Virus record (IMG/VR): IMGVR_UViG_3300044846_005100
Coordinates: 64,001 to 128,000 of that record
Source of the DNA: a virus
DNA: 64,000 nt
Strand: one strand, 5' to 3'
Within the stretch, counting starts at the first letter, position 1. Each line of letters starts with the position of its first letter. The notes beneath the pieces are model-generated. The model was not told where the DNA came from, did no database searches, and was given only the letters and a program-made list of their open reading frames with translations. Made by a program: the position numbers and the translations under genes. This document shows positions 19,942 through 56,743 of this stretch, piece after piece.

Positions 19942-20021
19942 ATTTTTTATTTTTACTACTTGCACCCCGAAAGGTGCAACGCTTTTGGCTTAAAGTCTAT
20001 TTATAGTTGCCAAAACAACTT

Positions 20022-24960: not shown

Positions 24961-25031
24961 GCCTCTATGACCGAGTGGCTAGGTGTAGGTCTGCAAAATC
25001 TATTACGGAGGTTCGATCCCTTCTGGAGACT
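24961..25031 (+). tRNA. tRNA-Cys(GCA)
   Basis: Cloverleaf: anticodon arm TAGGT-CTGCAAA-ATCTA, T arm GGAGG-TTCGATC-CCTTC, U73 discriminator; one acceptor mismatch; CCA not encoded. Confidence 0.85.
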
Positions 25032-25058
25032 CTTTTTAAAACAAAAAACATTAAAATT

Positions 25059-53691: not shown

Positions 53692-54165
53692 ATGAATACA
53701 TTTAGTAAAATATTAATACTTGTATTGAGTATTATTTGTGTATATCTCTGGTTTAATAAAAGCAGTAGTATTTCAGAGAAAGAAAGTATTATACAAAAAC
53801 TAGAAGATAGCTTATCAAAAAAAGTAGATACTTTTATAGTAATGAGAGATACTGCTAAACACAAATACAATCAATCTAAGAAATTTATAATTAAATATGA
53901 TACTATTTACAAGCCAGGAAAAGATACGATTTGTGACTCTTTAGTAAATGCACAAAGAATAGCATTGAATAATTGCGACACTGTTATAAATATTTCAGAT
54001 ACACTTATAAAAACATTAATAATAAGAGATACTGTTAGAACAGAACATATAAAGTATTTAAAAAATAAAAATCTTTTTTCTTTAGTAGGGGGAGGAGGAT
54101 ATGGTCTTACTCCTCTAGGGTTTCTGCCTCATTTAGGTATTACTTTTGGAATAAAAATAAAATAA
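53692..54165 (+). CDS. spanin-like protein
   Basis: N-terminal TM, coiled coil, C-terminal GGGYG...LGITFGI beta hairpin; follows the endolysin. Confidence 0.55.
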   Translation: MNTFSKILILVLSIICVYLWFNKSSSISEKESIIQKLEDSLSKKVDTFIVMRDTAKHKYNQSKKFIIKYDTIYKPGKDTICDSLVNAQRIALNNCDTVINISDTLIKTLIIRDTVRTEHIKYLKNKNLFSLVGGGGYGLTPLGFLPHLGITFGIKIK

Positions 54166-54170
54166 AACTA

Positions 54171-54200
54171 TTGACAAGTAAAATAAAGTTCGTATATTTG
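54171..54200 (+). promoter_or_regulatory. canonical sigma-A promoter with no downstream ORF
   Basis: TTG-N19-TATATTTG. Confidence 0.8.
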
Positions 54201-54204
54201 CGGA

Positions 54205-54535
54205 ATATTTATTTCACTGAAACAAATTTCTAGTGCCTGACGTTTGAGGGGAAACCCTGGTTCATAAGATTCCACTAGATAGTTTTAAATAAGTAAGGAC
54301 CTCCGAGGATTAACAATTTAGATACCTTCAGGGAAAGGAGAGGAAAAACAGGATCAATAGACGTAAGAGTTGGGCTTCCCAATTTCCTGTATAATATACG
54401 ATAGCAGATATATCCTAAGTATGGTGACATATATGGAATACTGTAACGAACTTACCAATAGAAACAAGATAAATAGTTTTTTTAACATTGTCTTTACCGA
54501 AAAATTTAACTTCGGGAGAACCCTTAATTTTTTTA
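54205..54535 (+). ncRNA. candidate large structured RNA with GAAA tetraloop and 11-nt receptor
   Basis: AGGG-GAAA-CCCT 54247-54258; CCTAAG-[TATG GTGA CATA]-TATGG 54414-54436; further stems. Confidence 0.72.
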
Positions 54536-54612
54536 ATATTACTTAATTCTAATACTAGTTTAATGGCCAGAACTATGCTTAAAAATTTTTTTCATAAAAA
54601 TGCATTTTTTTC

Positions 54613-54642
54613 TTGACATTTGCAAAAAAAGTATTATCTTTG
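54613..54642 (+). promoter_or_regulatory. canonical sigma-A promoter
   Basis: TTG-N19-TATCTTTG. Confidence 0.8.
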
Positions 54643-54645
54643 CAT

Positions 54646-54738
54646 TGTATTTCATAGATACAATATTTATTATTCAAACAAATAATTTTTTGTACCGTAA
54701 CCCTCGCTGAATTCCCTTTGGGCGAGGGTTATTTTTTT
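54646..54738 (+). ncRNA. candidate ~90-nt small RNA
   Basis: Promoter, no ATG ORF, terminator TAACCCTCGCT/GGCGAGGGTTA plus T7. Confidence 0.7.
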
Positions 54739-54841
54739 GTCTAAAAAGTAATAAAATCATAATTTTTTTTTAATTTTGTAAAAAAATTTTTATACATATA
54801 TAAAAAAACCTTTATATTTGCATAAAAAATAAAATTAATAT

Positions 54842-56104
54842 ATGATATTAACTCAGGAAAAAATCAATCTTTTTATTAATTGGACTAATAAAAATAAAGA
54901 ATATTTAAGTATTGTTAGGCCAAATAAAAGTAAACTTTTAAAAAAATTATTAAAAGAAAATATAAATATCTCTTTTGAAGAACTAGATATTTTATTAAAA
55001 CAATATGGAAGAAAAAGAAAAAGAAACATAGTAGAAGGTACTAATGTTTGGGTTCCTTTAGAAATGGTAGAAACAGTTAAAGAATTAAATGCTATTTACA
55101 AAGAAAGTTTAAGCATAGGTGTTCCTGTAAATGACATAAAGCATGGCTGGTTAAAAAATGATACAGCATCTATGTTTTTTACTAATCCTTTATATAAGGA
55201 TAAAGGGGATTTAGATTTAAGTGCTATTAATTTTAAAGAATTATTTGGAAATATTGAACCTATTGTTGTTAAAAAAATTGAAAATAATAAAAAAACAGCT
55301 TTATTTGATAGACTTGTTTTTACAGATGTACATGTAGGTATGGATGTTGCTAATTCTGGTTATTCTTTATATGATTTAAAGTGGGATAAAGAAGAATTAT
55401 TTAAGAGATTAAATATTATGGTAGAACATACTGTAGAACATCAAAAATCTAATACATTAATTATTAATGATTTAGGAGATTTTTTAGATGGATATAATGG
55501 TCAAACTACTAGAGGAGGACATAAGTTACCTCAAAATATGAGTACAAATGATGCTTTTGATACAGCTTTACATTTTAAAATAAAATTAGTTAAATCTCTT
55601 GCACCTTATTTTGACAAAATAAAATTTATAAATATTTGTAATGATAATCATGCAGGTAGTTTTGGTTATATTGTAAATTCAGCTTTTAAAATATATATTG
55701 AAGAAGCTATAAATAATGTAGAAGTAATTAACCAAAGAAAATTTATTGATTATTATATAATAGAAAATAGATGTTTTTGTTTAACCCATGGCAAAGATGA
55801 TGTAAATATGAAATTTGGATTTAAACCTAAAGCAGATCCTGCAACTGTAAATAAAGTATTAGGGTATTTAAACCAGATTGAAGTATTAAACAAAGGTTAT
55901 TTTGAAATAGAATTTGGTAAAGGAGATAGTCATCTGGCAGTATTAGATGATTCTAGTAGTGATATATTTAATTATTATTCTTATCCTGCATTCAGCCCTA
56001 GTTCAAATTGGGTACAATTAAATTTTAATAAGGGACGCAGTGGATTTGTTCATTTTAATTATATGGAAAACAGAAAAAATATTAATCCTTATTTTTTTAA
56101 TTAA
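54842..56104 (+). CDS. calcineurin-like metallophosphoesterase
   Basis: DVHVG, LGDFLDG, DNH, THG, GDSH; TATATTTG promoter at 54813. Confidence 0.85.
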   Translation: MILTQEKINLFINWTNKNKEYLSIVRPNKSKLLKKLLKENINISFEELDILLKQYGRKRKRNIVEGTNVWVPLEMVETVKELNAIYKESLSIGVPVNDIKHGWLKNDTASMFFTNPLYKDKGDLDLSAINFKELFGNIEPIVVKKIENNKKTALFDRLVFTDVHVGMDVANSGYSLYDLKWDKEELFKRLNIMVEHTVEHQKSNTLIINDLGDFLDGYNGQTTRGGHKLPQNMSTNDAFDTALHFKIKLVKSLAPYFDKIKFINICNDNHAGSFGYIVNSAFKIYIEEAINNVEVINQRKFIDYYIIENRCFCLTHGKDDVNMKFGFKPKADPATVNKVLGYLNQIEVLNKGYFEIEFGKGDSHLAVLDDSSSDIFNYYSYPAFSPSSNWVQLNFNKGRSGFVHFNYMENRKNINPYFFN

Positions 56105-56107
56105 GGT

Positions 56108-56743
56108 ATGGCATATATTTATAGGCATATTAGGATGGATAAAAACGAACCATTTTACATTGGTATTGGCACTGATAATTATTTTTATAGATCTAAAAGT
56201 AAAAAAAATAGAAATAAATATTGGGAAAATATAGTAAATAAAACAGATTATAAAGTTCAAATTTTATTAGAAGATTTAACTTGGGAAGAAGCTTGTGAAA
56301 AAGAAATGGAGTTTATTGCATTATATGGAAGAAAAGATTTAGGTAAAGGAACTTTATGTAATTTGACAGATGGAGGAGAAGGAATAAAAAAATGTATACA
56401 TAGTGAAGAGACTAAACAAAAAATTAGAAAAAAATTAATAGGTATTAAACTTTCAGAAGAACATAAAGCAAATATAGCTAAAGGACAAATTGGGTCTAAA
56501 AGAACTATTGATACTAAAATAAAAATGAGTAAAAAAATAAAAGAAGCTTATAAAAATGGAAAGCTTTGTAATAAAGGGAAAAATAATGGAAGATGCAAAC
56601 AAGTTATAGACTTAACTACAGGATTTTTTTATAATTATGCAGGAGAAGCTTTTAAATCTCAAAATCAATTTAAAAATCTTAGTTATTTTATGTCTATGTT
56701 AAATGGATACAGACCAAACAAATCAAATTTTAAATATATTTAA
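56108..56743 (+). CDS. GIY-YIG-like homing endonuclease with NUMOD3
   Basis: YIYRH...FYIGIG, E..FI, NLTDGGEG, HSEETKQKI. Confidence 0.8.
   Translation: MAYIYRHIRMDKNEPFYIGIGTDNYFYRSKSKKNRNKYWENIVNKTDYKVQILLEDLTWEEACEKEMEFIALYGRKDLGKGTLCNLTDGGEGIKKCIHSEETKQKIRKKLIGIKLSEEHKANIAKGQIGSKRTIDTKIKMSKKIKEAYKNGKLCNKGKNNGRCKQVIDLTTGFFYNYAGEAFKSQNQFKNLSYFMSMLNGYRPNKSNFKYI

Follow-up and report, generated by a model that had tools for sequence, protein, structure and literature searches.

The question raised by this locus is what a phage promoter serves when no protein-coding gene lies behind it. The locus belongs to a 64-kb stretch of DNA (hereafter the window, i.e. the whole of the sequence analysed), which is contained in a complete 140-kb virus from IMG/VR, and it consists of a 676-nt gap (54166-54841) without any ORF of at least 60 aa. 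The gap is bounded upstream by the gene of a 157-aa membrane protein (orf157, which follows the gene of an M15 endolysin and ends at 54165) and downstream by that of a 420-aa exonuclease-like protein of the metallophosphoesterase type (54842-56104). As Pfam identified an HU/IHF-like protein together with crAss tail ring proteins 1 and 2 just downstream, we regard the phage as crAss-like; such phages rank among the most abundant ones that infect Bacteroidota. A first-pass annotation, made from the sequence alone, had noticed in the gap a promoter followed by a set of stems and tertiary motifs, all of which we recovered at the positions that it gave, and had proposed a novel phage ncRNA or ribozyme that interrupts no gene. 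In line with the last point, the C-terminus of the upstream ORF and its own stop at 54165 are the same in relatives that lack the RNA, and the downstream gene begins 300 nt past the RNA, behind a promoter of its own. The RNA stretch (34% G+C, with 36-40% over 54200-54400) is richer in G+C than the window on average (29%) and than the remaining gap (20%). Nothing in the window at large hints at a recoding of stop codons (under table 11, an ORF of 1661 aa is uninterrupted), and a tRNA-Cys (GCA; 24961-25032, plus strand) was the single phage tRNA.

The promoter (54171..54200; this and all features of the gap described below lie on the plus strand) comprises a -33 element TTGACA (54171-76) and a -7 element TATATTTG (54193-54200), with a 19-nt gap after the TTG. 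In a sigma-70 scan TTGACA (54171-76) and TATATT (54193-98) scored 11/12, which bears out the initial description of a perfect promoter with no ORF behind it (none of at least 60 aa, and none that is conserved), and a still better fit was given by the form TTG-19 nt-TATATTTG, which is that of Bacteroidota primary-sigma promoters. The pattern TTGAC-N14-18-TAnnTTTG occurs at two sites in the 64-kb window (chance expectation 0.48), one belonging to the RNA and the other to a companion small RNA (sRNA) further downstream, and both promoter boxes are kept in 11/11 variants of the RNA (as TTTACA in L010 and as TAAATTTG in L033). Judged by these boxes, the promoter is of the host type, i.e. one for the Bacteroidota primary sigma factor (sigma-A). 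The transcript limits, as predicted from sequence, would be 54205 (from the promoter geometry) and 54535 (from a hairpin, P6, the motif GGGAGAACC and a U run at 54528-34), and would delimit an RNA of ~330 nt. The terminator scan called no terminator at the 3' end, where P6 and the U-rich end do not form a textbook one, and the variable tail (54477..54535) is probably the 3' end of the RNA or its terminator.

Homologues of the RNA were sought with patterns of decreasing dependence on its most recognizable motifs: the exact receptor hairpin retrieved 2 homologous contigs, GGGGAAACCC combined with a generic receptor with a GNRA cap retrieved 15, and two patterns that require neither motif (run on viral contigs and on 241 million metagenome records) returned the same set together with L025, L030, L032 and L033. 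Three independent patterns recover one and the same homologue set, which amounts to ~20 contigs of uncultured viruses and metagenomes, drawn from different samples, and to 11 distinct RNA sequences; the sample is shallow, with two main clades. A covariance model of the RNA core (R1; 231 positions, 49 pairs) found one copy per genome in three complete phage genomes, and gave no match when applied to three Bacteroidota genomes and to a phylum-wide sample of 151 genomes. A looser structure-aware pattern, applied to viral contigs and to 185,579 prokaryote species genomes (one each), yielded the known set and chance matches only (the latter were discarded, as they failed to match the covariance model), while an exact 20-mer was not found in the cellular genomes of the same 185,579 species. 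Searches of a phage collection with blastn and megablast gave no match to the RNA, and no relevant description of an equivalent RNA was found in the literature. We consider, on the strength of these searches, that the RNA family is real but narrow, and that it belongs to a small group of lake-water (freshwater) crAss-like phages.

The place that the RNA occupies, with the lysis genes on one side and the exonuclease-like gene on the other, varies among relatives (as seen in loci found via the downstream protein). In the window its cargo is a two-RNA module, made up of the ~330-nt RNA and the companion sRNA; in L008 and L009 the slot measures only ~120 nt (L008 3878-4000) and the RNA is absent; and in L002 and L005-7 it holds the gene of a membrane-anchored protein of 371 aa that contains two PAS-like repeats (L005 2774-3889; L002 2-1012). 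A synteny search through the flanking proteins recovered only relatives without the RNA. In L019 (3860-5572) the lysis genes stand in the opposite order, with the orf157 homologue ahead of the endolysin, so that the RNA promoter stands directly after the endolysin and not after orf157, and the downstream order is unchanged. These comparisons of gene order indicate that the slot is a cargo site, and, because related phages hold other content or nothing at the same place, that the ~330-nt RNA is an accessory element. The neighboring exonuclease-like protein is itself variable: its first ~120 residues are kept (~70% identical) and the rest is replaced in some relatives (a 405-aa form), as seen on comparing the window gene with L005 4001-5218 and L002 1125-2387, which looks like domain or module shuffling. 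Directly after its gene the window carries a GIY-YIG homing-endonuclease-like gene (phrog_314; 56108-56743, plus strand), and L002 has a GIY-YIG-like ORF as well, though a different one, which overlaps the end of the exonuclease-like gene.

The alignment of the homologues (A3, 11 sequences) was used to test a nested secondary-structure model of 66 pairs, in which 95.6% of the cells were found to be paired. Two-sided pair changes were observed at 10 pairs (25 cells), in comparison to 0-1 pairs when the 3' partners were slid by 1-3 columns; the covariation score was reached by 0/500 shuffles, and RNAalifold, run independently on the core, gave the same helices. Covariation among homologues, which had been put forward as a check on the fold, thus speaks for it. 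Seven helices are kept through two-sided compensatory changes, and the changes in the 3' half are mainly compensatory substitutions. Seven of the 10 two-sided changes trace to the single split between the two main clades, and those in P2 and P4 are independent of it. Furthermore, the alignment contains ~47 G-U cells that would be A-C mismatches on the opposite strand, and this abundance of G-U pairs identifies the plus strand as the RNA strand. The minimum-energy fold of the single sequence is no more stable than those of shuffles (z = 0.01), which holds for either strand, and since Rfam, the single-sequence fold and the chance rate of the receptor motif are all unimpressive, the case rests on the relatives.

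At the 5' end of the model lies a terminal hairpin, P0 (54207..54227; AUUUAUUUC / GAAACAAAU, loop ACU), with one pair that changes from U-A to C-G, and it is followed by a 5' domain (54229..54279) made up of P1 (54229-35 / 54273-79, TCTAGTG / CACTAGA), P2 (54247-50 / 54255-58, with a GAAA loop at 54251-54) and the large invariant internal loops CCUGACGUUUG and GGUUCAUAAGAUUC. P2 changes in two sequences only, from AGGG/CCCU to AGAG/CUCU in L030 and to AGAG/CUUU in L033. The most conserved stretch (54280..54348; 5/69 columns variable) contains the purine tract GGGAAAGGAGAGGAAAAA, the 5' strand of an invariant long-range helix, PL (GUAAG 54293-97 / CUUAC 54451-55), and a tentative, likewise invariant hairpin in the purine-rich part (GAGG 54305-08 / CCUU 54325-28); both were also predicted by RNAalifold, and the A-C opposition adjoining PL (54292/54456) becomes G-U in L030. 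The pairing in the invariant 5' half, PL and the P7 hairpin are to be read as predictions of the model. Downstream, P3 (54349-53 / 54385-89, CAGGA/TCCTG; with a change from C-G to U-A) encloses the invariant joint UCAAUAGACGUAAGA and the hairpin P4 (54368-74 / 54378-84, with a 3-nt loop and TTGGG/CCCAA at 54370-82), which shows U-A, U-G and C-G in three groups of sequences. The receptor hairpin, P5 (outer helix 54404-13 / 54437-44, inner helix 54420-23 / 54428-31), has five pairs that changed on both sides, and is followed by a conserved 3' joint (AACGAACUUACCAAUAGAAACA..., 54445..54476) that holds the 3' strand of PL. The variable tail (54477..54535) carries P6 (CCGAA 54497-501 / UUCGG 54511-15; an A-U pair is replaced once by G-C, and the other clade has a single mismatch), the U-rich end and GGGAGAACC (54514-22), which is invariant. 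The five stems proposed at the outset are all present in this model, and four of them gained compensatory support from the relatives, the first (P1) showing only an A-U to G-U change (in 4/11 sequences). Of the pseudoknot that had been suggested as well, a pairing of 5 bp (ACGUU 54240-44 / GACGU 54360-64) is possible; it is invariant in 11/11 sequences, hence uninformative.

Among the features noted at the outset is an exact 11-nt tetraloop receptor (CCUAAG 54414-19 / UAUGG 54432-36), here confirmed at 54414-54436, that encloses a 4-bp stem capped by the GNRA loop GUGA (54424-27). Chance alone would produce the pattern CCTAAG-N8-30-TATGG 0.58 times per window, so a lone occurrence proves little, and it is the invariance among relatives that gives the receptor evidence its weight. 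Within P5, receptor positions are variable in 0/11 cases versus 16/30 for the other positions (Fisher one-sided p = 0.0014), and the cap is GUGA, GAAA or GAGA, i.e. a GNRA loop in all sequences. The prospective partner, the GAAA loop of P2, is likewise found in 11/11 sequences, and L030 and L033, which were retrieved by a pattern without either motif, keep both the GAAA loop and the receptor. The alignment accordingly indicates that every homologue found conserves the GAAA tetraloop together with the 11-nt receptor, as the first-pass annotation had expected of a genuine contact.

We then asked whether an RNA of this description is already catalogued. No match to Rfam 15 was found in the RNA, either at the gathering score (whole window) or at E up to 10 (the gap, and L017 as a member of the other clade), and the only signal in the gap was terminator-like noise in the companion sRNA; the Pistol ribozyme and the tRNA-Cys elsewhere in the window were found and served as positive controls. 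A group I intron was rejected, as a search with RF00028 at E up to 10 was negative for the window region and for L017 alike and flanking exons are missing, and the covariance models of group II introns and RNase P RNA gave no match at E up to 10 either. Searches at the gathering score and at E up to 10 were equally negative for GOLLD, ROOL, OLE, raiA, HEARO, LOOT and further large motifs of Rfam, and nothing within 54050-54900 matched the models of pistol, twister, hammerhead, hatchet and HDV-like ribozymes. The attributes that were found are those of a structured ncRNA gene, namely its own promoter, no conserved ORF, compensatory helices and strand-specific G-U pairs, and we judge from the alignments that we are dealing with a genuine family of structured ncRNAs that had not been catalogued before and that has a conserved tetraloop-receptor motif.

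Taken together, these observations make it fairly probable, in our estimation, that the locus is a stand-alone gene for a compactly folded ~330-nt RNA, which is carried as accessory cargo by a small freshwater clade of crAss-like phages and acts in trans. The RNA would be transcribed by the host RNA polymerase, and the GAAA loop of P2 would dock into the receptor of P5, whereby the P1-P2 domain may be clamped onto the junction of PL, P3-P4 and P5. Such a clamp could hold the invariant joints (CCUGACGUUUG, GGUUCAUAAGA, GACGUAAGA, AACGAACUUACC and the purine tract) as a fixed three-dimensional surface or pocket, through which the RNA, acting in trans in the infected cell, would most likely bind a conserved macromolecule of the host or the phage. 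Its role might then be that of a decoy or a scaffold, and it would represent dispensable cargo rather than core machinery.

The main rival to a trans-acting decoy or scaffold is a ribozyme, in which the tetraloop-receptor fold would shape the invariant joints into an active site (for self-cleavage, RNA processing, ligation or similar). Nearly invariant single-stranded joints within a covariation-supported scaffold are what such an RNA would present, pairs of GAAA loop and 11-nt receptor are typical of large ribozymes (group I and group II introns, RNase P), and the same phage already carries a Pistol self-cleaving ribozyme (19954-20020, minus strand; 65.1 bits against RF02679, gathering score 34.5, full length). 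However, in neither clade did any model of a catalytic RNA match at E up to 10, the sequence shows neither a cleavage-site signature nor a processing product, and many tetraloop-receptor RNAs are not catalytic, so that we hold this reading to be unlikely. Of the initial proposal of a novel ncRNA or ribozyme, the free-standing structured ncRNA has thus stood, while its catalytic half has found no counterpart among the known models. The other alternatives, namely a cis-acting leader, an element that works as DNA and a small protein, are considered less likely than a ribozyme.

The case for a leader turns on what lies between the RNA and the next gene. The companion sRNA unit (54613..54739) has a consensus promoter (TTGACA...TATCTTTG; 54613-42), situated 440 nt downstream of that of the RNA, and ends in a strong terminator stem (54698-707 / 54722-31) followed by a U run. 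The sequence of its 5' hairpin is entirely different between the clades; the terminator stem covaries (AACCCUCGC/GCGAGGGUU versus UACCCCUUGC/GCAAGGGGUA) and the terminator loop (UGAUUCCCUUU) is unusually large and conserved. The sRNA is found 3' of the RNA in all homologous loci that reach far enough, and is absent where the RNA is absent; as a matter of co-occurrence, the link between the two is real in the loci compared. RNAduplex identified no site of pairing between the two RNAs that is consistent across variants, and a 5-6-bp match of the sRNA terminator loop to AGGGAA was dropped as too weak. Between the sRNA and the exonuclease-like gene lies a further promoter (~54789-820). Of the partners that had been envisaged for the RNA, the sRNA shares its distribution. 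Joint action with the metallophosphoesterase or the endonuclease gained no support: close relatives of the phosphoesterase gene are present where the RNA is not (L002, L008), and its alleles in RNA-bearing phages share 34-58% of their amino acids.

A cis-acting leader would be a riboswitch-like sensor in which P6 and the U-rich end form a conditional terminator that controls read-through into the sRNA and the exonuclease-like gene. It would account for the constant position of the RNA ahead of the exonuclease-like gene, always the same distance away, and for a terminal hairpin and U-rich tract that are weaker than a normal terminator. Yet the RNA is separated from the next ORF by the second promoter (54613-42), by the sRNA with its strong terminator (54698-739) and by the third promoter (~54789-820), an arrangement that led us to reject a riboswitch or leader position; close relatives of the exonuclease-like gene (L002, L008) do without the RNA, its 330 nt exceed known aptamers, and there is no Rfam riboswitch match. 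We regard such a leader as decidedly unlikely, and retain the trans-acting RNA as the preferred reading.

A different kind of explanation would place the function, or the mere similarity, at the level of DNA: the module could have spread recently by horizontal transfer, or it could be a DNA site (an origin or a binding array), and RNA function would not enter into it. The flanking genes are indeed mosaic, the exonuclease alleles differ widely while the whole gap (including its promoters) is similar, and the position of the module is different in L019. Relative to the window, RNA-bearing loci show an amino-acid identity of 47-67% for the orf157 protein and of 34-58% for the exonuclease-like protein, and across RNA-bearing phages the flanking proteins are 34-63% identical. 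At the DNA level, identity to the window is 73-78% for the orf157 coding sequence and, in the other clade, ~85% for the coding sequence of the ring proteins (~90% at the amino-acid level), in comparison to 96% for the 5' half of the RNA, 85-89% for its 3' half and 72-75% (between clades) for its tail. It follows, as far as these identities can be read, that the RNA is far more constrained than the adjoining genes, and that recent transfer alone can hardly account for so steep a gradient within 330 nt; some of the RNA's high identity could nevertheless stem from recent exchange of the module between phages. Conservation is thus strongly uneven within the module (96% versus 72%), the compensatory helix changes with G-U intermediates are sensible on one RNA strand only, and, apart from A/T-rich low-complexity noise, no inverted or direct repeats mark the ends of the module, which makes a purely DNA-level account improbable.

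There is no conserved ORF among the 11 variants of the RNA, as single-base indels are scattered through the alignment and the frames differ. One frame (NELTNRNKI..., 54433-54546 on the plus strand in the window, readable from ~54445) is open in 11/11 variants, over 21-37 codons, and we consider this openness to be probably a by-product of constraint at the nucleotide level. A small protein or a dual-function RNA based on that frame can be set aside as very improbable, in spite of its being open in every variant, since the in-frame start codon (AUG) is placed differently in the two clades, past ~13 codons the frame in which the invariant GGGAGAACC is read differs between variants, five contigs cut the frame to 21 codons, 4/5 substitutions in the shared part alter the residue (by our reading of the alignment), and two ORFs of 58 aa (plus strand) and 51 aa (minus strand) are limited to the window's clade.

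The position of the RNA in an accessory slot, its use of the region's best host-type promoter and its travel with a second small RNA point, within the limits of comparative evidence, to an adaptive RNA 'moron'. To our knowledge, RNA-only accessory cargo is poorly understood in phages, and if a partner or an activity were found for this RNA, it would show what such RNAs do in infection. A bolder proposition, which we put forward tentatively and hold to be rather doubtful, is that the RNA is the working part of a new RNA-only phage function (a new class of ribozyme, or a decoy for a host defence or translation factor), delivered as a two-RNA module that recombines between crAss-like phages independently of the protein genes. 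In either case, a compact (~330 nt), strongly constrained and covariation-supported RNA with a textbook tetraloop-receptor motif is added to the repertoire of crAss-like phages, and its size and architecture are suited to chemical probing, cryo-EM and ribozyme assays.

Among known systems, the closest structural likeness is to the P4-P6 domain of Tetrahymena-type group I introns (GAAA in L5b, receptor in J6a/6b), with which the RNA shares identical receptor letters (CCUAAG / UAUGG), a receptor that encloses a short capped helix, and a GAAA loop placed on a G-rich stem elsewhere in the molecule. The folding device, to judge from these motifs, is that of the group I P4-P6 domain, whereas the RNA differs from group I introns in having no match to the P3-P7-P8 core or to the G-binding site, in having no exons and in possessing its own promoter. 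In its general character the RNA resembles GOLLD, ROOL, OLE and raiA, which are likewise free-standing, elaborately folded and rich in tertiary-contact motifs; GOLLD and ROOL are reported to be often phage-borne, and in contrast to these two the present RNA is much smaller (~330 nt) and occurs, as found here, in one small crAss-like clade only. The four belong to the large 'ornate' ncRNAs of bacteria and phages, whose function is unknown (Kretsch et al. 2025, PMC12286853). In the crAss-like Cellulophaga phage phi14:2, abundant and stable intergenic long non-coding RNAs of unknown function have been described, and the host RNA polymerase reads sigma-70-like promoters of middle and late genes (bioRxiv 10.1101/2020.03.07.982082). 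Homology to these lncRNAs (g004-g006 intergenic regions) was rejected, as R1 reached at most 9.1 bits on NC_021806 1-9000 with filters off and blastn gave no match. The phi14:2 RNAs lie at the early left end of the genome, whereas the RNA described here lies between the lysis and exonuclease-like genes, and its promoter is of the host type, the host polymerase in phi14:2 serving middle and late genes. Both are nonetheless ORF-free stretches in crAss-like phages of Bacteroidota, with high transcription shown for phi14:2, and by analogy we consider the intergenic RNAs of phi14:2 to be the nearest biological precedent for the RNA of this freshwater clade.
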